From positions 1 to 37,867 of IMG/VR virus record IMGVR_UViG_3300037780_000019: a DNA stretch of 37,867 nt; one strand, 5' to 3'. The stretch is from a virus. Taxonomy: Duplodnaviria; Caudoviricetes. Each line of letters opens with the position of its first letter. Position 1 is the stretch's first letter. The notes below the pieces were generated by a model, which was not told the DNA's origin, did no database searches, and saw only the letters and a program-made list of their open reading frames with translations. The translations under genes were made by a program, and so were the position numbers. Positions 13,388 through 37,688 of the stretch are shown piece after piece.

Positions 13388-13828
13388 CTACCAAAGCTCT
13401 TTTGGTAGCCCCTGTTCCTTTGCGTACCGGCACAGCATCGGTGGCAATCTCTTGCCTGAATGCTGTCTGAAATATGCCCCGGCGATTGCCAGAATGGCGA
13501 CTTCTGAGGCGGTTCGTGATTCGGCCATACTGAACCCGCCAAGCAATTCAGAGGCCGCCACCCGTCTGGCTACGCGCCCCTTGCTTTCAGGCTCGCTATC
13601 CCTGCACTGGTAGAAGTAAACCCATGCCCCGACAGTCGTTCGTGCGTAGTCCTCGTGTCGCTTTCCAAGGTCAAGCGTCGTCACAATTTCACCGATAACC
13701 CCATCCATAAACTCCCGGTAGGAGTCGTAGGACGGGAACGGATCCACTATCCCTGCCGTAGCGTTTGGCGCTGCGGTGATCGCTGTCAGTGCGGCAGCCA
13801 GCGCAAGCCGGATCGCCGTCACTCTCAC
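13388..13828 (-). CDS. Exported hypothetical protein (signal peptide), moron gene 2
   Basis: GTG at 13828 overlaps the upstream stop (GTGA); MRVTAIRLALAAALTAITAAPNATA signal-peptide pattern. Confidence 0.7.
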   Translation of the reverse strand: MRVTAIRLALAAALTAITAAPNATAGIVDPFPSYDSYREFMDGVIGEIVTTLDLGKRHEDYARTTVGAWVYFYQCRDSEPESKGRVARRVAASELLGGFSMAESRTASEVAILAIAGAYFRQHSGKRLPPMLCRYAKEQGLPKELW

Positions 13829-19545: not shown

Positions 19546-20374
19546 CGGTTTTGCTCCGGTTGTGGAATTCGATGATGCCGCTTGCGCCGTAGCTGAGCCG
19601 GTCGACGGGCTGTTCGCCTGCCGCCTGCTTGCGACGCTGCACGTCGAGGAACCAGCCGTAGACCTCGGCGGCGGTGATGCCTGCCTTGGACCAGTTTTCG
19701 GCATGGGTGGTGTCGTCAGGGGTCGGCCATGGCCTGCGCTGGATGTCTGCCGCCTCCCTCGCTGCCTCGAAAGCGGCGATCAGGGTGACGGGCTTGGTCG
19801 AGCGGTTGAGGCTCCAGGGGATTTCGAGTGTTTCCGGTTCGGGTGGTTTTTCGACGACCTCGCGCGCAAGAGCAGCGCATCTATTACTATCGGTCTCGGG
19901 TTCGGGTTCGGGCTCGGTTGTATCGGTAGGGGTATCGATAGCCCTATCAGCGGACTTGAGTGTGTCGATTTTCGCGCCGAACCTATCCGACTGTAATTGC
20001 TGGATAATCTGGTCCCGTTCGCTGCATTTCGGCAGGGATAGGGCTATTTTTACAGCCCCTGCAGCGTGCTTCATGTTCGTAATGGGTGAATGAGCCAAAA
20101 AATCAGTGATCAGAACCACCCTCTCCTGCTGGTTCCACCCTATGAGTAGGGCTTTGCATAGTGCTTCGATAGCCCTATCGATACGGTCGAATTCCCATCC
20201 GAGGTCTTCGTAAACATAGCCCTTCGGCAAGCGGAAACATCCGATGGAATTCACATGCGGGCAGGTGTGGAGGTAGAGGTAGAACATCTTGGCGTCGTCG
20301 TTCCCGTCGAGTGACCGGAACTTCTTCGACTGCCACAGGCTGGTGGATACCTTGCCGTACTCTCGGAGGCTCAT
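19427..20374 (-). CDS. Replication initiator protein (lambda O position)
   Basis: N-terminal HTH-like YGKVSTSLWQSKKF...YLYLHTCPH...GCFRLP, an EPEPEP linker and internal iteron-like repeats. Confidence 0.75.
   Translation of the reverse strand: MSLREYGKVSTSLWQSKKFRSLDGNDDAKMFYLYLHTCPHVNSIGCFRLPKGYVYEDLGWEFDRIDRAIEALCKALLIGWNQQERVVLITDFLAHSPITNMKHAAGAVKIALSLPKCSERDQIIQQLQSDRFGAKIDTLKSADRAIDTPTDTTEPEPEPETDSNRCAALAREVVEKPPEPETLEIPWSLNRSTKPVTLIAAFEAAREAADIQRRPWPTPDDTTHAENWSKAGITAAEVYGWFLDVQRRKQAAGEQPVDRLSYGASGIIEFHNRSKTDAGTHDHHGNKSQPRRSNAAGGGLVEATRQVLADIGGEV
19935..20179. repeat. Iteron-like repeats; putative replication origin
   Basis: TCGATAGCCCTATC at 19935-19948 and 20166-20179; inverted GATAGGGCTAT at 20037-20047; locally AT-richer. 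Confidence 0.6.
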
Positions 20375-21111
20375 GCGCCAGCCTCCAGGATAGCCCGCCC
20401 GATCATCTCGGGGATTTGGGGGACGACGGCGTTTCTGATTCCGTCAGTTCTGTCCACCCGATAGGAAAGCCCATCATCCACTCTTCGAAACTCGCGCAAC
20501 GCACGTTCTGGAGTTCGGTTCCACGGAACGGATTGGAACTCCCGCCCCATTCCGAAAGCACCCCCGCAGAGTGATTCTTCCCGTGGTTGCTGACTCCGCT
20601 CGGGGTGGGCCACAATCCAGACACGTTCTCGACGATGGGGAGCGCCCACGGCTGCCGCCGGTATGTTCTCCCACTCCGCATCATACCCGAGGCGGGCCAG
20701 GTCTCCGAGAACTCGGCCAAACCATGCCCCTCGTTTTTCGCTTGGGCCAGCAAGCAGGTTTGCGACGTTCTCCAGGATGATGAACCGGGGTCGAAGGTCG
20801 CCAGCAAGTCGCACGATCTCGGACCAGAGGCCGGACCTTTCACCGTCAATCCCGGCTCGCTTTCCGGCAACGCTGAGGTCTTGGCAGGGGAAACCTCCGG
20901 TGATGACATCAACGGCAATTCCATCGGCAGCAAGCCGCTCTCCGGTGAGGGTTCGGACATCTTCATAGATCGGCACCTCCGGCCAGTGTTTGCGCAGGAC
21001 ACGCTGTGCGTATGGATCGATCTCACAGAACGCGACGGTCTCGAATCCTCCAGTCCGTTCAAGGCCGAGGGAGAAGCCGCCAATCCCGCTGAACAGGTCA
21101 AGGACGCGCAT
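20371..21111 (-). CDS. dcm: C5-cytosine DNA methyltransferase, alpha (large) polypeptide
   Basis: LDLFSGIGG (motif I), GGFPCQ (IV), LENV (VI), HRRERVW (VIII), NAVVPQ (X); TGATG-coupled start at 21111. Confidence 0.9.
   Translation of the reverse strand: MRVLDLFSGIGGFSLGLERTGGFETVAFCEIDPYAQRVLRKHWPEVPIYEDVRTLTGERLAADGIAVDVITGGFPCQDLSVAGKRAGIDGERSGLWSEIVRLAGDLRPRFIILENVANLLAGPSEKRGAWFGRVLGDLARLGYDAEWENIPAAAVGAPHRRERVWIVAHPERSQQPREESLCGGAFGMGREFQSVPWNRTPERALREFRRVDDGLSYRVDRTDGIRNAVVPQIPEMIGRAILEAGA
20403..20966 (-). CDS. Out-of-frame nested beta polypeptide of the methyltransferase, 187 aa
   Basis: GGAGGT-8 nt-ATG at 20966 inside dcm; contains TWPASGMM, LWPTP and EWMMGFPIGWT (motif IX-like), which the alpha frame lacks. 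Confidence 0.75.
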   Translation of the reverse strand: MKMSEPSPESGLLPMELPLMSSPEVSPAKTSALPESEPGLTVKGPASGPRSCDLLATFDPGSSSWRTSQTCLLAQAKNEGHGLAEFSETWPASGMMRSGRTYRRQPWALPIVENVSGLWPTPSGVSNHGKNHSAGVLSEWGGSSNPFRGTELQNVRCASFEEWMMGFPIGWTELTESETPSSPKSPR

Positions 21112-21308
21112 CACCCAACAACCCTCCCCGTCCTGATCGCCCACCGCGCCTTCACCATGGCTCTGTGTTCGCGGCACAGCCGGTCCTGCCACTTCTTGCG
21201 CGGGGCGTGCTCACGGATGGCCTTGGCGAGAGAAACGGCAGTGCTGTAGAAGCGGACCAGATGCTCGAAATAGGCGCGGATCGCGCGGATGCGGTTGCAG
21301 ACTTTCAT
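21111..21308 (-). CDS. Hypothetical basic protein
   Basis: ATGA-coupled to rusA; stop overlaps the dcm start. Confidence 0.6.
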   Translation of the reverse strand: MKVCNRIRAIRAYFEHLVRFYSTAVSLAKAIREHAPRKKWQDRLCREHRAMVKARWAIRTGRVVG

Positions 21309-21754
21309 CCCGTCACCCCGCGCCATTCCGTGACCTCGATTTCGAGCCGCGGGTTCTCGCTGTAGCGCTTGTGTGCGATCAGGTCGGCAACAAGGCTGTC
21401 GTCATCGAGAACGACGCCGTTGCAGGCATCCATGGCGGCTTTCACGTAGTTGTCGATATCCGGGCGCTTGGCCGGGACGATCTCGCCATTGACGGCCTGC
21501 AGGCGCTTGGCTTTCGAGTAGCTTTTCGGGATCGGGACATAGGCGCAGACCGCGAAGACGACCGGCCCGGCGATGGGCGTGAGGCCGAGCATTTCGACCT
21601 TGGCCCGTGTCTTGACGGCGTCCTCGTAGCTGCGGGTCTTCTTCGGCGTGAATGCGATAGGCTTGCCGTTCGCGGTCTTGCCGATCCGGGGGCGACCTTT
21701 GGCGACGGGAGCGCCTTCAATGGTAAAGCGGACGGAGCGCACGGTGTTGGTCAT
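21305..21754 (-). CDS. rusA: RusA-family Holliday junction resolvase
   Basis: GAPVAKGRPR, RPDIDNYVKAAMDACNGVVLDDDS and KRYSENPR motifs. Confidence 0.92.
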   Translation of the reverse strand: MTNTVRSVRFTIEGAPVAKGRPRIGKTANGKPIAFTPKKTRSYEDAVKTRAKVEMLGLTPIAGPVVFAVCAYVPIPKSYSKAKRLQAVNGEIVPAKRPDIDNYVKAAMDACNGVVLDDDSLVADLIAHKRYSENPRLEIEVTEWRGVTG

Positions 21755-22170
21755 GCTTCACCGCACCCCCGGCCCTGCTGGCCGGTATTGTCGGGATCAA
21801 CGAACTGCCGCCACGGAATCCAGCCCTGCGGACAGGCGAAACCCCAGTCGCGAATGACGGGACCGGTCAGGAAAAGCGTCCATGCTTCCTGCTGGTCGCG
21901 GACCTCAAGGCGGTGCAGCGCTGTTGCCCGGCGCAGGATGATGCTGCCGGCCCTCCGCGCCTTCCGACCAGTCGGGAGCACTTCCAGATAGCCGCCCTTG
22001 AGGATGATGGTCAGATTCCACCACGGATGGTCATGCAGCGCCCGGTCATCATCGCTATGCCGGATGTTGTGCAGGTAGATGTTAAAGAAGCGGTTGCGCG
22101 GGATCACCCACCAGCGCCGCAGGTAATCGTTGCCGATCACGAAATCAGGTGGGCGGCGAAAAAACATCAC
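21751..22170 (-). CDS. Cupin-fold phage protein
   Basis: LHDHPW...ILKGGYLE...LHRL...WTLFLTGP metal-binding cupin pattern. Confidence 0.75.
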   Translation of the reverse strand: MMFFRRPPDFVIGNDYLRRWWVIPRNRFFNIYLHNIRHSDDDRALHDHPWWNLTIILKGGYLEVLPTGRKARRAGSIILRRATALHRLEVRDQQEAWTLFLTGPVIRDWGFACPQGWIPWRQFVDPDNTGQQGRGCGEA

Positions 22171-23112: not shown

Positions 23113-23193
23113 ATGAACCATTATGGTGTTTTCTGTCAATGGGAAAATGAACCGTATTGGTTCTATCCGAAATCACACCATTTCGGAGATACT
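23113..23193. promoter_or_regulatory. Operator/promoter region between cro and cI
   Basis: 17-bp quasi-palindromic operators ATGAACCATTATGGTGT (23113-23129) and ATGAACCGTATTGGTTC (23147-23163); minus-strand TTGACA at 23134-23139; possible -10 GATACT 7 nt before the cI ATG. Confidence 0.75.
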
Positions 23194-23200
23194 GCCGCCC

Positions 23201-23887
23201 ATGGCAAAAACACCAAATCGGCTCAGAGAATTACGTGAGGCCCGCGGATACACGCAGGCTGATCTAGGCGAGTTATGCAACACCAGCAGTCAACAGATCG
23301 GACGACTGGAAAAGGGTGAGCGCCGCCTGACGGATGACTGGATGGTCCGCATCGGCAAGGCGCTGAACGTTCCACCCTACTCATTGATGGACGGAGCACC
23401 CACGCACCAGCCAAGCGGCGCGGTTCCCGTGATAGGAGAGGTTGCAGCAGGACTTTTTCGCGAATCCATTGAATGGCCCGAAGAACGGCGCTTTGATGTC
23501 ACAATGCCAACAGATGAGAGATATATGGGATTGAAGACATATGGAGCGCGGGTATCCGGCCCGTCGATGAACGAAATTTACCCTGACGGGTCGATTGTGC
23601 ATTTCGTTTATCTATATGATCTGGACCGGAACCCTATGCACGGCGAGCGGGTCATTGTCCGCCGACGTAATCATCATGACGGATGGGAATTCACCATCAA
23701 GGAGTTGCGGATCGATGACGAGGGCGGTTGCTGGCTGTGGCCCCGGTCTCACGACCCGAAATACCAGGAGCCGTGGAAGCTGGAGTTTTCGGAGGACGAC
23801 GACGCAGCCGGCGTCCCGGATCTCCAGATCGTCGCGCTCGTTATCGGCAGCTACCGGCCGGAAGTCACATCGGCGGCAGTCCGGTAG
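23201..23887 (+). CDS. cI: CI-like repressor, XRE HTH plus S24 autopeptidase
   Basis: NRLRELREARGYTQADLG HTH, VAAG cleavage site, GPSMN catalytic Ser, TIK catalytic Lys. Confidence 0.92.
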   Translation: MAKTPNRLRELREARGYTQADLGELCNTSSQQIGRLEKGERRLTDDWMVRIGKALNVPPYSLMDGAPTHQPSGAVPVIGEVAAGLFRESIEWPEERRFDVTMPTDERYMGLKTYGARVSGPSMNEIYPDGSIVHFVYLYDLDRNPMHGERVIVRRRNHHDGWEFTIKELRIDDEGGCWLWPRSHDPKYQEPWKLEFSEDDDAAGVPDLQIVALVIGSYRPEVTSAAVR

Positions 23888-29230: not shown

Positions 29231-29461
29231 ATGGAACGCAGGGGTTATCCGAGAGTGCTGGCCGCTGAATACATCGGCATATCGCCGTCGAAGTTCAGTC
29301 AGCTTGTCCGCGAGAAGAAAATCCCCGAGCCTCGGGAGATCGACGGCGGTAAGCTGGTCTGGGATCGGTATGACCTGGATGAATACTTCGACGCGCAGCC
29401 CAGAAGGGGCGACCCGGGCGACGCAAGCGAGTGGGATGATCTGGCAAATGGCCAAGCGTAG
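29231..29461 (+). CDS. xis: Excisionase / AlpA-like HTH protein
   Basis: AAEYIGISPSKFSQLV...IPEP...WDRYDLD; GGAGG RBS; immediately upstream of the integrase. Confidence 0.8.
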   Translation: MERRGYPRVLAAEYIGISPSKFSQLVREKKIPEPREIDGGKLVWDRYDLDEYFDAQPRRGDPGDASEWDDLANGQA

Positions 29462-30464
29462 GAACAAGCCAAAGTACGTCGATATCGTCCGTAAGGGCGG
29501 TACGGAGTACCTGTATTTCCGAAAGGGAAAGGGTGCGCGGGTTCCGTTGCGCGGCCCGCTTGATTCCGTCGAGTTCTGGGCCGACTGGAACGCGGCAGCG
29601 GAAGGCTATGTTCACACCAGAGAGCGGGCAGATCGGCACAGCCTCCGGTGGCTGGTGGATCAGTATTACCGCTGGCCCGCATTCCGCGAACTGAAGGCCA
29701 GCACACAAACCGTCCGCAGGCGCATTCTGGAAGGCTTCTGCAAGGAGTACGGAAACCGTGGATACGCGACCCTGACCAGTCAGGCGGCGCGAGGCATCCG
29801 GAACATGAAGCAGGACACCCCGGCGGCCGGCAACAATCTCATCAAGGCGCTGAAGCAGGTTTTCAGCGAGGCCGTAGAGCACGGCATCATTTCATCGAAC
29901 CCGTTCGACGGCATCCGCAAACTAAAGGAGCGCAAGCAGGGCGCAACCCCGTGGAGCATCGAGGACGTGGAGAAGTACGAGAATCATCACGCCATCGGAA
30001 CACAGGCCCGCCTCGCGCTCGCCCTGTTCCTCTACACCGGACAGCGCAGATCCGACGTTGCCCGCATGGGTCGCCAGCACATCAAGCGCGAGACCCTGAG
30101 CATGACCCAGACCAAGACCGGCAATCAGATTGATATCCCCGTTCTGCCGATGCTGCGCGAAGTCCTCGACGCCACGGAGACGGGAGACCTCACGTTCCTG
30201 ATAACGACGCACGGGAAGTCATTCACGGTAAATGGCCTGGGGAACAAGTTCCGGCAGTGGTGCGACGAGGCGGGGTTGCCGGACAAGAGTTCGCACGGCC
30301 TCCGTAAGGCGATGGCCATCCGTCTCGCCGAGAAGGGATGCACGCCGCACCAGATCGGAGCCATCACCGGCCACGAGTCTCTGGCGGAGATCGAGCGCTA
30401 CACGAGAGGCGCGAACCGCAAGAAACTGGCCGAGAATGTCACGAGGCTGTTCAGCGATGATTGA
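29448..30464 (+). CDS. int: Tyrosine integrase, 338 aa
   Basis: YTGQRRSD (R), QTKT (K), HGLRK (H-x-x-R), TGH and ERY (Y) catalytic residues. Confidence 0.93.
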   Translation: MAKRRNKPKYVDIVRKGGTEYLYFRKGKGARVPLRGPLDSVEFWADWNAAAEGYVHTRERADRHSLRWLVDQYYRWPAFRELKASTQTVRRRILEGFCKEYGNRGYATLTSQAARGIRNMKQDTPAAGNNLIKALKQVFSEAVEHGIISSNPFDGIRKLKERKQGATPWSIEDVEKYENHHAIGTQARLALALFLYTGQRRSDVARMGRQHIKRETLSMTQTKTGNQIDIPVLPMLREVLDATETGDLTFLITTHGKSFTVNGLGNKFRQWCDEAGLPDKSSHGLRKAMAIRLAEKGCTPHQIGAITGHESLAEIERYTRGANRKKLAENVTRLFSDD

Positions 30465-32061: not shown

Positions 32062-32656
32062 CGACCCGCAGAACGTGGACGATGCAATCGCCCGAATGGA
32101 AAAGCGCATCGCAGAGAACCCAAACGCCAAGGGGTTGAATCTTGGGTTGCGCTCACTGAACAAGCGGAAGACTTTCGACCTGAAAGCGGCACCTGAGCAA
32201 TACAGTAGAACGCGGAGTCATGTTTTAGGAATTGTCCTGCCGATGATGGCCCCGAATGATTTTTCTTTCTTTGCCGGATGGACGCGGGAATTGGCCAGAT
32301 TCATCAGACAATCTTCATTCCCGGTTGCGTGCGAGTACCCGGGAGAAATTGAGGATTGGTGCAAAAGGATTGAATGCAGCGACGGGGACGGCATCACAGG
32401 CAACTGCGCATTCGTCCGGAAGAAGATACAGGAAATCGACTACGAGGACGGGTGGCCAGTTGATAGGTACGGGAATGCCCTGAATGCAGTTTGTCTCGGC
32501 ATGCTGATGTATCAGGACACCCGCTGGCCTGATGAGGCAGCTGAAAGTGTCTTTCGTCTTATCACGGGCATGACCGCTTACAACGACACCACATCTAAAA
32601 TGATGAGGGAGTGGAAACTCGACCTCGCACTTAAATGCGCGGAAGCAGCAGAATGA
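32054..32656 (+). CDS. Hypothetical protein, 200 aa, lower GC
   Basis: AGGA RBS within the junction repeat; AT-richer codon usage. Confidence 0.65.
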   Translation: MTDDPQNVDDAIARMEKRIAENPNAKGLNLGLRSLNKRKTFDLKAAPEQYSRTRSHVLGIVLPMMAPNDFSFFAGWTRELARFIRQSSFPVACEYPGEIEDWCKRIECSDGDGITGNCAFVRKKIQEIDYEDGWPVDRYGNALNAVCLGMLMYQDTRWPDEAAESVFRLITGMTAYNDTTSKMMREWKLDLALKCAEAAE

Positions 32657-32970
32657 CCGAGATCAAAGCGTGCCCTTTCTGTGGTGCGAGCGGTGAGGAT
32701 GTGTCTGTCTACGGCGACATGGTGACCCCCTACTATATCGAGTGCAACAAGTGCGATGCATGGGGGCCGAACGCTGACACTGAAGCCGAAGCCATCCAGA
32801 AATGGAACGCCGCCGCCGACCGTATCGAGGAACTGAAGGCGGAGAACGAGAGCTTGCGGGCGGCCCTGCCAACACTGGCCCGTTTCACCCGCACCATTTC
32901 AGCGCCAGTGCCATCCGCCAAGGACGAACAGTGCAACATCCAGATCATCGAGGAACAGCGCCATGACTGA
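32653..32970 (+). CDS. Lar-like zinc-ribbon protein fused to a coiled coil
   Basis: IKACPFCG...IECNKCDAWGP...EAIQKWN followed by AAADRIEELKAEN. Confidence 0.75.
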   Translation: MTEIKACPFCGASGEDVSVYGDMVTPYYIECNKCDAWGPNADTEAEAIQKWNAAADRIEELKAENESLRAALPTLARFTRTISAPVPSAKDEQCNIQIIEEQRHD

Positions 32971-33009: not shown

Positions 33010-33396
33010 GGAGAACCAGTGATGAACACCTACGGACAGTACCAATATCCCGGTCGCCCTGAATGGTATCCCGATCCTGCCAGCGCTCAGAGGAACATCG
33101 GAATGTTCAGGACGCCGGATCATGCGGTTGCCGAGTGCATCGAAAAGCACGGCGTCGCCATCGAACGGTCAGTCAGTTGGAAGACCACGGAAGGATGGGT
33201 ATCGCGTGTCACGGTCGGCCCGTACCCGGATTGGAAGACGGCGAACGTCGAAGCCTATCAGTCGGCATTCGCGATGGGCATGCCCTTCCCGAAGATCCGC
33301 AAGCACTGGTGGGAGTTCTGGAAGACGGAGTATAGCGCGGAGGAGGAAGAAGCCATCCGCGAGGCGTGGAATCTGTTCACGGAGAACCAGTGATGA
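33010..33396 (+). repeat. 16-bp direct repeat of the RBS/stop/start junction bracketing gene 33019-33393
   Basis: GGAGAACCAGTGATGA at 33010-33025 and 33381-33396. Confidence 0.85.
33019..33393 (+). CDS. Hypothetical protein
   Basis: GGAG RBS; Trp/Tyr-rich 124-aa ORF. Confidence 0.65.
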   Translation: MMNTYGQYQYPGRPEWYPDPASAQRNIGMFRTPDHAVAECIEKHGVAIERSVSWKTTEGWVSRVTVGPYPDWKTANVEAYQSAFAMGMPFPKIRKHWWEFWKTEYSAEEEEAIREAWNLFTENQ

Positions 33397-33608
33397 CGTG
33401 GCGGGACATCGAGACAGCGCCGGAGGAAGGCAGGGAAATCGAATGCTGGAACCCCGTGACCGGCGTCTACAGGACAAAGCGAGGGGGCGATGAGTACCCT
33501 TTCCGCAACTGGATATACGAGGGCAGCATCCACTATCCAAGGCCGCGAAAATGGCGGTACGTAGGGCAGGAAAAGTTGCGCAAATCGGCGGATTCTGCTA
33601 TAAAGTGA
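33393..33608 (+). CDS. Small phage protein (WRDIETAP, DUF551-like)
   Basis: TGATG coupling; MTWRDIETAPEEGREI...PRKWRY. Confidence 0.7.
   Translation: MTWRDIETAPEEGREIECWNPVTGVYRTKRGGDEYPFRNWIYEGSIHYPRPRKWRYVGQEKLRKSADSAIK
33576..33604 (+). promoter_or_regulatory. Sigma70 promoter driving the candidate ncRNA
   Basis: TTGCGC (33576-33581), 17 bp, TATAAA (33599-33604), with an extended -10 TG at 33596-33597. Confidence 0.7.
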
Positions 33609-33609
33609 G

Positions 33610-34150
33610 GGCAAGTCCAATGGTCTTGCCACGAGATCGCGAGCGGCGTGGAAAGCAGACACGCACGAAAAAGCAGCACCGGATAGTGGTCGGGTCGGCG
33701 TCAGGGAAACCAAGTCGGCGGAGGACGCTCCTCGGAAGGCCGGTTAGCGGGAGTAGCGCCCCGCCTCGCGACACTTAGGAGACAGGCCATGTGCCTTGAG
33801 ATGAAACACGGAGACGCGGGAAGCGCGGGTTAGGTGACGTCAACCGGCCCGTTTTCAGGGGTGCGAATGGCGTTAAACCCATGCCCCGCAACGGTTTAAG
33901 CCTGACGTCGGAAGTGAGGAAGTGCAGCCCGCCATATCGGCAATCTTGGCTATCACGCGGAAGCCTGAGGGGCCTTGTCACCAAGCAAGGACTGCCTGAA
34001 TTTTCTAGCATGCAGGCCGGTGGCGATCAAGGAATCGGGTTAGGAATACATGGGTGTGGCAAGAAATGCGCACACCAGCCGCCGGGTAAGGCGCGTTGCC
34101 CCCGGCGGGAAAATCAGGGAGCCGTCATCTTCGGATGACGGCTTCTTTTG
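33610..34150 (+). ncRNA. Candidate large structured non-coding RNA (~540 nt) with a tRNA-like 5' domain
   Basis: Own promoter and terminator, no convincing CDS, and about ten complementary segment pairs including nested long-range helices (see findings). Confidence 0.6.
34120..34150 (+). terminator. Intrinsic terminator ending the ncRNA/rightward transcription
   Basis: AGCCGTCATC-TTCG-GATGACGGCT followed by TCTTTTG; sits between convergent transcription units. Confidence 0.85.
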
Positions 34151-34160
34151 TGGTTGACAG

Positions 34161-34676
34161 TCAGCGCCGGAGGTCCTTTTCCTTCGAGCCGCGCGAGGAC
34201 CCGAATTCAAACTGGAACGCATCCCCGATCATCTTGAGGATCGCCCCGATGGCCATGTTGAAGATAGCCAGGATTTCGCCGGGCAGATCGAGCCGCGACT
34301 GATAGATCGCCCATACGATTGCGCAGAGGCACCCGAAGGCAAGCGTGAGCATGATGTCGGCGCGGTAGTTGTGATACCCGGCTTGCCGCATCTTCACGTC
34401 GCGGTCGCGGGCGTTTTGCCGGTCAGCCAGATAGGCTTTCTCCAACTCTGCGTCGAGCGATGCCATTCTGTTCTGGAACCGCAGCACCGCCTCCGGATCG
34501 GCTTTCACCGCCTCCACGGCCTTCTGGGGATCGGCTTCGCCCGTCACAGCCTTGGCAACATCGACGACCTTCTCGGCCACGTCGGCCGCATTGTCTCCGG
34601 CGAAATGACGGACGATGCCCGGCGCGAATTCCGAGACCAACGTCATGGCGAGCGGGATCAGCGGGAAAGCTACCAT
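34161..34676 (-). CDS. Putative holin
   Basis: Two C-terminal transmembrane helices; DRQNARDR and FEFGSSRGSKEKD motifs; follows the endolysin. Confidence 0.7.
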   Translation of the reverse strand: MVAFPLIPLAMTLVSEFAPGIVRHFAGDNAADVAEKVVDVAKAVTGEADPQKAVEAVKADPEAVLRFQNRMASLDAELEKAYLADRQNARDRDVKMRQAGYHNYRADIMLTLAFGCLCAIVWAIYQSRLDLPGEILAIFNMAIGAILKMIGDAFQFEFGSSRGSKEKDLRR

Positions 34677-34679
34677 GGT

Positions 34680-35057
34680 TCAATACTTCCAGACTGCGGG
34701 CCGCGCTGCATACGCGTGGCCGATGTCGATATGGATGAAGGTCTGGGCGACACCGATGCCCATGTCCATGCCGAGGCTTCTCTCGGCAAGGGCTGCCTCG
34801 ATGATCTCGAAACCCTCCATGCCGTTGGAAATGGCAAAGTCCACCGCCAGCCCCTGATTGTGTGCGCCGGGGTTTGCCTTCTTTCGTTCCTCGGGATGCG
34901 ACCGGTCACGCCAGCCGGAGGTCACCTTGAGCGGCCTTTCAAGCCGGGTGCGGATCCGCTGGAAAAACTCCATCGCCTCGGGCTGCATGTGACAGCCGCC
35001 GGTATGCGAGCAGGCGAATTCACTCTCGGAGAAATTCGGGTATTTCGACCAGTCCAT
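34680..35057 (-). CDS. Endolysin, peptidase M15 family
   Basis: NFSESEFACS...VTSGWR...AHNQGLAVD...FIHID zinc ligands; GGAGG RBS. Confidence 0.88.
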   Translation of the reverse strand: MDWSKYPNFSESEFACSHTGGCHMQPEAMEFFQRIRTRLERPLKVTSGWRDRSHPEERKKANPGAHNQGLAVDFAISNGMEGFEIIEAALAERSLGMDMGIGVAQTFIHIDIGHAYAARPAVWKY

Positions 35058-35058
35058 T

Positions 35059-35262
35059 TCAGGCCTCCTTGGTCTCTTGGCAAAAGGTGGTGATCTGCGT
35101 TTCAACGTCGGGGAACTCGTGCCATCCCATCGACCGGGCGAGCGGCATCAGGGTCATGGCAATCAGGCGGCACTGCCCTTCCGTGCTGACCGGCCCGGAA
35201 CCGACGGCAACGCAATCCGTCGTGTTGAGGACACAGATCAGCAGGATGGCAGAAAGCATCAC
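35059..35262 (-). CDS. Small Cys-containing exported protein in the lysis cassette
   Basis: Hydrophobic N-terminus, four Cys, GTGA coupling. Confidence 0.55.
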   Translation of the reverse strand: MMLSAILLICVLNTTDCVAVGSGPVSTEGQCRLIAMTLMPLARSMGWHEFPDVETQITTFCQETKEA

Positions 35263-36038: not shown

Positions 36039-37688
36039 TCATGCCCATTGTTCGACTGTCCCGTGGATCTGGATCGACTTCGTGTTCGCCGTCCTGATCC
36101 GGTAACGCATGTCTGTTCCGGAAGGCTGAGCGGAGATATCGATCTCGTTGTCCTCGTAAGCGATGGTCCCGTCGGCCAGCGTCTGGACAGCCACCAGCGT
36201 TGCCGTTGTCCATGTCGAGCCGTCATCCCGGCTGACATCGGCCAGCAAATCCGTGTTGATCGTGATGGCTTCCTGCGGGGCTGCCTGAACATGAATGCGG
36301 GCGATGTCCGGCTCGCTGTCCGCCGTGAAGGCTTCGGAGACGATGGTCATGTCGGAAATGACTTCGGCATAGATCGCCTGACAGAACCGGGAATAGTTCG
36401 ACGCGGCGGTGTAGGTCTCGCCGGTACCGGTGGCGTCTCCCGAGTAGTAGGAAACGTCATGCGTTGCGTTGACGCGGTTCATGTTCGACGCGGAGTAGCT
36501 GCCGAGCCGATAGGTACCGGACCCGGGGATCGCATATGGCGTCGTCAGGTTGAACGTCTCCCACCCCGAACCGGTATGCGAGAAGGATTCGTCGTAGACT
36601 ACGTCAATGTCGGTGGAAGAGTTTTCCAGTCCGATCTTGGCCTTTACCGTGACGGCGGAAGCGCTGTAGATCGCTACCTGAGAGACGGTCTTGCCATTGG
36701 TCAGCGAGAAGGTCCGGTCGAACATCGTAGTCCCGCCCGACCCCGAGACGCCCGGCGTCGTATGCCCGCCGTCCGACGTGCCGCCTCCGGTGAGGTTATG
36801 GTAATAATCGTTCGTCGCGTCGTAGTTCTGGTTCGTGGATGCGCTCGTATCCACGTCGGTTTCATCCTCGTAGGCATCGGCAATGCCGTCGCTCATGTTG
36901 AGCCGGTCTCTGGACAGTTCTGCCAGCAGGAGGAAGGCGAGCCGCATGTCGGTTTCAGTGGCGTTGGCAGGTGTGGCTGCCGTCCATGTAGAGCCGGAGA
37001 AGGTGAGCACCTGGCCGTCTGTGGGGGTAAGCGCCGCAATGGCCGTCAGGTCACTATCGAGGGGTTGAGCGCCAAGCCCGGTCAGCGTGGCCGCTGCCGT
37101 CCGGTTCACCCACCCCGTGCCGTCGTAATAAATCGTGTCTCCGCTTGCGACACCTGAAAACACGGCATCCAGAGACCCCTCGATGTTTGCAACGGTGGCC
37201 ACCTCCAGAGCAGTTCCGGCGCTGTTCCATTTCACGACAGCATTTGCCACCGCCTCCGGAAACGTGATGCCCGTCAGCGTCGAGGAGATCGGCAGTTTAA
37301 TCGACCGGTCGAGTTCCTCGGTCTGCTGCTGGTTGATCATCGTCAGCTTGTCGAGGGCGCGTTCATGCGCTTCCGCCGTGAAAGCATCGTTCTCGACGTA
37401 ATCGGTTTCCTGCGTGATATCGACATACCGCAGGATAACGACACGCTCGCTGGCCGCCGGGGTGTAGTCCGTCGGTGTCGTCTTGACCGTGATCGAGCCG
37501 CCCGCCGGATCACCTGCCCCGGAGACCGTGTAATGCGTGTTCAGCGTCCACGTTGTCTCGACGCCGTCCACATCCCGGTGAACGACAAGCAGGTCGCTGT
37601 CATTCAGGAAGTAGAACGGGACCGCAAAGGTAACAGTGGACCCGTCCCCCGAGTAACTGGCCCGGGAGGTATCGCTGGAAACAGTCAT
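36039..37688 (-). CDS. Tail fibre / receptor-binding protein, 549 aa
   Basis: T7 gp17-like N-terminal anchor (YSGDGSTVTFAVPF...HERALDKLTM), AQPLDSDLTAIAAL linker and Thr/Ser/Gly-rich beta C-terminus. Confidence 0.85.
   Translation of the reverse strand: MTVSSDTSRASYSGDGSTVTFAVPFYFLNDSDLLVVHRDVDGVETTWTLNTHYTVSGAGDPAGGSITVKTTPTDYTPAASERVVILRYVDITQETDYVENDAFTAEAHERALDKLTMINQQQTEELDRSIKLPISSTLTGITFPEAVANAVVKWNSAGTALEVATVANIEGSLDAVFSGVASGDTIYYDGTGWVNRTAAATLTGLGAQPLDSDLTAIAALTPTDGQVLTFSGSTWTAATPANATETDMRLAFLLLAELSRDRLNMSDGIADAYEDETDVDTSASTNQNYDATNDYYHNLTGGGTSDGGHTTPGVSGSGGTTMFDRTFSLTNGKTVSQVAIYSASAVTVKAKIGLENSSTDIDVVYDESFSHTGSGWETFNLTTPYAIPGSGTYRLGSYSASNMNRVNATHDVSYYSGDATGTGETYTAASNYSRFCQAIYAEVISDMTIVSEAFTADSEPDIARIHVQAAPQEAITINTDLLADVSRDDGSTWTTATLVAVQTLADGTIAYEDNEIDISAQPSGTDMRYRIRTANTKSIQIHGTVEQWA

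Follow-up and report, generated by a model that had tools for sequence, protein, structure and literature searches.

The window analyzed here is the whole of an IMG/VR virus record (IMGVR_UViG_3300037780_000019), 37,867 bp of DNA with direct terminal repeats, and the subject of this report is a gene-free gap at 33609-34160 together with the cloverleaf-shaped RNA that we located within it (Table 1). Protein family matches along the window were those of a temperate T7-type podophage; a temperate podophage had been supposed in the original prediction, which was made from the DNA letters alone. Besides the integrase and the CI-like repressor, the window encodes RecE/RecT-like genes, a portal, a major head protein, tail tube proteins, and internal virion proteins. 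The gap lies between two converging units, one ending in a + strand open reading frame (ORF) and the other, the late unit on the - strand, having a gene for a phrog_1544 protein next to the gap. Within the gap, four ORFs of 60-85 aa were found to have no match in Pfam or PHROGs, and in a related DNA contig, X5, 1-nt insertions or deletions at several points of 34059-34091 would break the reading frames there. The approximately 550 bp are thus without a credible coding sequence, in keeping with the original prediction.

Table 1. Features of the RNA locus and of flanking and diagnostic genes in the window
Feature	Position	Strand	Remarks
Promoter-like module	33570-33609	+	-35 TTGCGC 33576-33581, 17-nt spacer, TGc + TATAAA 33596-33604
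5' hairpin at predicted transcript start	33610-33630	+	GGCAAG 33610-33615/CTTGCC 33625-33630; present in minimum-energy fold
Conserved cloverleaf-shaped RNA, member of new family	33637-33771	+	model R1 68.7 bits, E 3.8e-13 (window in seed)
P1 closing stem, 7 bp	33637-33643/33765-33771	+	
CG linker	33644-33645	+	
P2, 5-bp stem	33646-33650/33660-33664	+	loop GAAAGCAGA 33651-33659
J2/4	33665-33677	+	
P4, closes variable centre	33678-33682/33740-33744	+	
UA	33745-33746	+	
P3, 5-bp stem	33747-33751/33760-33764	+	loop AGUAGCGC 33752-33759
3' piece B1, common to several variants	33772-33815	+	separate RNA contig 33778-33815, depth 61-82; joint 33815->34036 starts here
3' piece B2, 220 nt, present or absent between variants	33816-34035	+	no Rfam match
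3' piece B3, two local hairpins, not conserved	34036-34115	+	strongly diverged, many indels in X5
Bidirectional intrinsic terminator between converging units	34116-34155	.	hairpin and T runs on both strands
ORF, last of + unit, 5' border of gap	33366-33608	+	
phrog_1544 protein, converging late unit, next to gap	34161-34676	-	
M15 endolysin, late unit	34680-35105	-	
T7-type tail fibre, late unit	36039-37688	-	
CI-like repressor	23123-23887		
Integrase	29304-30464		

BLAST of the 601-nt gap sequence against 50,697 phage records (E<=1e-5) returned no match, and ten loci fetched by way of the neighbouring phrog_1544-type protein had no DNA similarity to the gap at the syntenic site. A second neighbouring protein yielded no loci, and only one of five whole related records held the element. 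A related provirus, G001, shared a 23-nt exact match with the gap, located at a non-syntenic place in a non-coding stretch beside tRNA-Met. A 16-mer taken from the P2 match was present in at least 121 IMG/VR loci among those listed (approximately 460 estimated), and in 101 of the 121 it was directly preceded by GCGGC. When these loci and the window were searched with a simple script, a second motif, GUAGC in a hairpin loop, was found 48-284 nt 3' of the first in 95 of the 122 sequences. An independent 19-nt pattern describing P3 yielded at least 122 further listed loci (approximately 500 estimated); the exact 16-mer was present in 54 of these 122 and a 22-mer, within five changes, in 87, while in many of the remaining loci the first motif was split by an inserted hairpin. 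We estimate that the exact core motifs occur in 460-500 IMG/VR stretches.

Comparison of the members revealed a common architecture, which the RNA in the window shares in all three of its defining parts: the geometry of P1, a P2 hairpin with the loop GAAAGCAGA, and a P3 hairpin whose 8-nt loop, RGUAGCGN, belongs to a stem abutting P1. In the window, the core forms a four-way junction whose strands run in cloverleaf order. Among 147 unique elements, P1 was contiguous over at least 7 bp and immediately adjoined both the CG linker and P3 in 135 (mode 8-9 bp), the linker was CG in 137, and the P2 loop was identical in 139. The base before P3 is usually A, and the 3' strand of P1 follows P3 directly, with zero bases between. 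The first and last bases of the P3 loop were A and C in 85 of the 147, A and A in 28, and G and U in 17. The centre of the element is hypervariable in both length and sequence, so that whole elements range from 93 to 331 nt; in the window it is closed by P4, which shows two compensatory changes relative to the three closest members (L025, L054, and L093).

A covariance model, R1, was built from 37 short members using P1, P2, and P3 only. In 100 loci that had been selected solely by the P3 pattern it recovered the complete element 96 times, and in 100 selected solely by the P2 16-mer, 94 times. In the P3-picked set, 98.3% of the cells in paired columns could pair, and the covariation score was 0.533 compared to 0.119 in shuffled alignments, none of 500 of which scored as high; across both picked sets, pairing was approximately 98% and the score 0.53-0.55 compared to 0.12. 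Sliding the partners by one to three columns in the P3-picked set lowered pairing to 33-41%. Double changes were seen in that set at seven of the eight P1 pairs and all five P2 pairs, and in the P2-picked set at all five P3 pairs. G·U appositions exceeded A·C appositions by 25 to 6 and 33 to 10 in two alignments, and the transfer RNAs (tRNAs) found near members lie on the strand of the element; both observations point to an RNA read from the + strand of the window. We are confident that the core belongs to a real RNA family.

The original prediction had proposed a single structured RNA of approximately 540 nt with complementary segments over most of the interval, and in this respect it did not hold. 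Outside near-identical relatives, conservation is confined to 33637-33771, or 135 nt. Identity to the closest family members is 81-84% over 33643-33765, with nothing shared beyond, and the conserved unit is the 135-nt core rather than 540 nt. The covariation that was to be sought was present in P1, P2, and P3 of the core but not in the 3' part, where eight substitutions placed on the minimum-energy fold broke pairs in three cases and were compensated in none. Nor did folding energy exceed chance for most of the interval: the z score was -2.6 for the whole 547 nt, with 2 of 100 shuffles equally stable, but -0.64 for the 3' 343 nt and -0.44 for the conserved core alone. Thermodynamic stability is no useful signal at this locus.

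The other elements of the predicted locus fared better. A hairpin had been placed at the predicted +1, at about 33610-33612 by our inference, and is present there. The terminator with a UUCG loop and U-tract was likewise found, in a longer form than had been described, with a 14-pair stem and T run at 34116-34147 on the + strand; the - strand can be read as a 10-pair version with its own T run. The promoter had been called near-consensus, and here the site, the spacer, the TG at 33596-33597, and the -10 TATAAA at 33599-33604 are all in place, but TTGCGC agrees with TTGACA at only three of six positions, and the stricter promoter rule of the search tool returned no site at the module. Exactly 33570-33609 recurs in X5, followed by unrelated downstream sequence. 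These features support a non-coding locus with a promoter-like module and a terminator of its own.

RNA evidence came from contigs assembled from four RNA sequencing runs of a single study of one organism, organism A; window parts that these contigs leave uncovered are not evidence of silence. RNA contigs span 33583-34129 at a depth of 47-63 (X3, X4) or 9.4-9.9 (X8, X9) and with 97-98% identity, the differences from the window amounting to 4 in 225, 8 in 251, and 12 in 422 positions. Over the rest of a 19.9-kb stretch of the window, only scattered organism A pieces were found, at 88-92% identity and a depth of 2.6-8, and the depth at the RNA locus is thus 6-20 times that of the other related prophage genes of organism A. 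This contrast in identity and depth indicates that organism A carries a related prophage whose genes are less conserved than the RNA locus and far less abundant in the RNA library. In two low-depth runs the contigs start at 33615 and 33622, a weak hint of a start site. The cover fits expression in the lysogen, as the original prediction had suggested, with the strand, ends, and level of the RNA lying beyond the reach of contigs.

The same libraries, together with X5, revealed that the 3' portion of the locus is a mosaic. Contigs joining 33815 directly to 34036, and thus without B2, were present at a depth of 8-12, compared to 47-48 for the form that contains it, and the main form in organism A continues with other sequence after 34036. 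X5 also carries 33778-34131 behind unrelated sequence, without the core. A further joint in organism A connects 33655 to 33746 with 125 other bases between them, and this constitutes a second family member. The approximately 360 nt outside the core are such a mosaic, with 33772-34115 made up of exchangeable pieces riding on the same transcript, and the locus illustrates how phage non-coding regions are built, from a promoter module and exchangeable RNA cargo.

One alternative is that the whole transcript of approximately 490-540 nt is functional, its 3' 360 nt serving as part of a large RNA or as a second regulatory RNA, for example one antisense to late mRNA. In its favor, single contigs from the low-depth runs bridge 33615 or 33622 to 34036, and 33786-34036 is 97% identical in organism A compared to 88-92% for prophage genes, with X5 listing three differences over 33778-34036. 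A 15-nt exact repeat (33874-33888, equal to 13617-13631) would moreover pair with a - strand transcript upstream of the portal gene, but a 15-mer match is expected approximately 0.02-0.1 times by chance and six comparisons were made. The absence of anything shared with the closest members past 33765, the existence of a form without 33816-34035, the divergence of organism A after 34036, the 3' piece of X5 without a core, and the z score and broken pairs given above all argue the other way, and we regard this alternative as unlikely, if deserving of attention. The target of the 15-nt repeat would lie approximately 75-90 nt upstream of the portal start (13542), and organism A has a substitution inside the repeat, at 33886.

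The element is also carried by cultured phages. In Pseudomonas phage Persinger (L382), R1 matched an element at 1495-1596, beginning 12 nt past the integrase stop; the region just behind an integrase is the usual expected place of attP. In Ochrobactrum phage POI1126 the match lay within a 590-nt gap. Partial matches to R1 were obtained in PotUPM1, near cI, and in Orimi01, beneath an annotated 'hypothetical protein', and the motif match in Orisa01-03 likewise falls beneath one. The loops are almost unchanged among phages of Proteobacteria, Planctomycetota, Acidobacteriota, and candidate phyla, and among low-GC jumbo-type phages.

Occurrence in bacterial genomes is sporadic. Within one bacterial class the element was present in 3 of 151 genomes sampled, the centre genome included; each of five genomes tested had one copy, and phage-family genes adjoined the element at five of seven bacterial loci. 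A scan of genome contigs with the 16-mer gave approximately 250 estimated matches, compared to approximately 277 expected by chance by our own arithmetic. The GCGGC prefix was present in 39 of 120 of these matches, which by their titles are spread over many phyla, including Planctomycetota, Acidobacteriota, Gemmatimonadota, Verrucomicrobiota, and candidate phyla. Another 21 of the 120 (L273, L283, L284, and L300 among them), with the prefix GGATG, were set aside as a conserved Streptomyces coding motif, where titles were listed, unrelated to the RNA family.

Rfam 15 returned no match to the whole window at the gathering score, in line with the original prediction, which could not assign the RNA by eye to any of the large phage RNAs that it named. 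At E<=10 the only match in 33450-34300 was sR47 (E 4.6) at 33486-33542, outside the gap. The element itself had no match in 20 member loci at the gathering score or in 20 further loci at E<=1. Literature searches by motif string or keyword did not find a published description of this RNA. The motif was also not found in six text supplements of Fremin et al. 2023 (PMC10690425), a search that did not extend to files 1, 2, and 4, which possibly hold alignments; the family may therefore be among the 10,006 unnamed candidates of that study. The family defined here is thus apparently uncatalogued and is widespread among phages and prophages.

A number of members were found in the company of tRNA genes. 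ARAGORN scans of 60 loci found tRNAs in nine, every time on the strand of the element. Five members (L017, L043, L051, L070, and L078) reside within the tRNA arrays of large phages, with spacers to the adjoining tRNAs of 2 and 4 nt in L078, 2 nt in L051, 1 nt in L070, and 7 and 11 nt in L043, so that spacers of 1-7 nt occur in four loci. No recurrent partner gene was detected: the largest cluster of neighbouring ORFs comprised 4 of 80 loci (L017-L096, those with full flank), and its ORFs overlap the element itself. The element is a stand-alone RNA gene that needs no phage partner gene and swaps with tRNAs in the slots of arrays. As to other RNAs nearby, Proteo-phage-1 RNA is found approximately 210 nt upstream of the element in two loci (L041 896-976 and L162 83-163), and a SorX-like match lies directly 3' of the element at L187 481-546, scoring 40.2 bits against an Rfam cut-off of 46.6.

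The element was compared with several systems. In genomic habit, the new family resembles GOLLD and ROOL, which are borne by phages or prophages, often beside tRNA genes, and have no known function; those RNAs are 580-800 nt long, whereas the new family measures 93-331 nt and matches no Rfam model. Closer in kind are the T4 RNAs rnaC (species 1) and rnaD (species 2), annotated as small stable non-coding RNAs among phage tRNA genes, only a few bases apart. Their slot is of the same type as that of some members of the new family, although the window itself is without a tRNA. Neither RNA has a known function, and neither is in Rfam. With filters off, R1 reached at most 5.4 bits (E 1.4) on the T4 region, and no homology to rnaC or rnaD was detected. 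rnaC (L381, T4 70908-71046) contains GAGUAGCGU, the bases of the P3 loop, twice; these fall in predicted stems, and the likeness may therefore be due to chance. By analogy, the new family would work most like the small stable RNAs of phage tRNA clusters.

Other known RNAs were considered and set aside. Passages of PMC4201824 describe YrlA and other Y RNAs as non-coding RNAs with a tRNA-like module, some of them in phages and some cut by RNase P. What defines YrlA is a neighbouring Ro60/TROVE gene together with the canonical nucleotides of the T and D arms. PF05731 (TROVE) had no match in the window record, control genomes being matched, and YrlA was rejected; the new family has no conserved neighbour, and its loops are GAAAGCAGA and RGUAGCGN. 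According to parts of a preprint on VIPR (bioRxiv 10.64898/2026.04.26.720920), vrRNAs are phage-encoded, with a variable part and a conserved folded 3' tail. They require 9-16 tandem GGY/NN repeats, and this candidate was also rejected, as neither strand of the window has a run of four or more GGY/NN and at most 4 of 10 period-5 GG positions are occupied in the gap. A tRNA or transfer-messenger RNA (tmRNA) was rejected on ARAGORN results, with no gene in the window and no call on the element in 60 loci.

The element nonetheless shares with tRNA a four-way junction, the same strand order, a 2-nt linker to the 5' hairpin, and a closing stem that directly adjoins a 5-bp 3' hairpin, P1 and P3 of the window having 7 and 5 bp. 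Taking this topology with the tRNA neighbourhood of other members, we propose that the promoter-like site at 33576-33604 probably drives a non-coding RNA of roughly 490-540 nt, from which the core would be released, by the enzymes that mature neighbouring tRNAs, as a stable tRNA-shaped RNA. Cleavage by RNase P would take place at the next tRNA and perhaps also at P1, and the 3' side may be trimmed by RNase Z, RNase E, or exonucleases. In the product, P1 would be stacked on P3 in the manner of an acceptor stem on a T arm, with the two loops touching to form one surface, and the RNA could serve as a decoy or adaptor by binding a host factor. The putative target would be a highly conserved component of the host, since phages whose hosts differ greatly have retained the loops.

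We hold this explanation as a whole, a new-family RNA on a non-coding transcript that is trimmed by tRNA enzymes and acts as a decoy or adaptor, to be somewhat favored. The role as a tRNA-shaped decoy or adaptor, considered by itself, is put forward only tentatively, and the anti-defence, immunity, or scaffold roles raised in the original prediction are conjectural. A more specific version, in which the element belongs to a very widespread class of portable tRNA-shaped chassis, excised by host tRNA enzymes, whose invariant loops dock on a factor common across phyla while a free arm carries phage-specific cargo, is speculative and rather improbable. Were this version true, phages would possess a general RNA tool for decoying or redirecting host tRNA-handling machinery or tRNA-targeting defence machinery.

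Several observations weigh against the explanation just given. Alignments A3 and A4 follow the model to which they were fitted, and members entered the seed for having a paired P1, so that the pair counts lean toward structure. The high-depth RNA contigs begin at 33583, 5' of the predicted +1, and contigs without raw reads show neither strand nor ends nor true level, while DNA may occur in an RNA library. The P3 loop, described as invariant, does vary: organism A has UUUAGCGC at this place and Persinger has GUUAGCGA. The window is without a tRNA or tmRNA by ARAGORN, and the argument from tRNA arrays therefore rests on other members. The tRNA likeness is topological only, as neither ARAGORN (60 loci) nor the Rfam tRNA model calls the element. 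In contrast to a tRNA, the element has no anticodon arm, its P1 is mostly 8-9 bp rather than 7, its loops are unlike T- or D-loop sequences, and CCA is not enriched 3' of P1 (11 of 145).

The hypervariable centre suggests another role, in which the conserved frame would be a scaffold presenting the centre as a guide or antisense arm, akin to a small RNA in a tRNA-like chassis. The wide variation in the size of the centre (whole elements 93-331 nt) around an invariant frame, and the tolerance of insertions even within the P2 loop, would be in keeping with this idea. Yet no match of at least 13 nt was found between the centre in the window and its own genome, in either orientation, and the centres are themselves folded domains, with P4 covarying; we consider such a guide doubtful. 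An insertion of this kind is seen in the IMG/VR locus L183 (element 444-647, - strand), where a T arm, an acceptor-like stem, and a D arm lie in permuted order within the P2 loop, and a canonical hairpin of the GGUUCRANNCC type is found in the variable part of 6 of 143 members.

The core could also be taken for an RNA that cleaves itself or directs processing, and so punctuates the polycistronic transcripts of phages. It is small, has near-invariant unpaired nucleotides, is spread widely in phages, and lies flush with tRNAs; in the window it is found where an operon ends, at the 3' side, and in Persinger it comes immediately after the integrase. No known ribozyme model matched in the Rfam searches of the window and the member loci, however, and it is two terminal loops, not the core of a junction, that hold the conserved bases; we consider this reading very unlikely. 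The notion that the element acts as DNA (an attP core, an origin, or a packaging site) or that a small protein is encoded within the gap, for which the position behind the Persinger integrase and the ORFs of 60-85 aa might be cited, is highly improbable given the excess of G·U over A·C, the tRNA co-orientation in 9 of 9 loci, the RNA-library cover, the mid-record rather than terminal place of the element in provirus G001, the ORFs without family matches, and the frame-breaking indels of X5.

The tRNA-shaped RNA proposed here bears on an older question, as the purpose of the small stable RNAs found among phage tRNA genes has gone unexplained since the species 1 and 2 RNAs of T4. The question is now directly testable because the family offers a covariation-supported structure, nearly constant loops, apparent expression from a prophage, and cultured, tractable phages, namely the Pseudomonas phages Persinger and PotUPM1 and the Orimi/Orisa group.

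Elsewhere in the window, a Lar-like restriction-alleviation gene (PF14354/phrog_599) occupies 32635-32970, upstream of the RNA locus by two genes and, like it, on the + strand. The early region encodes a protein with a cysteine-dioxygenase-like PHROG match (phrog_4786, E 6e-57) at 21751-22170 and a DNA methyltransferase at 20371-21192, both on the - strand.

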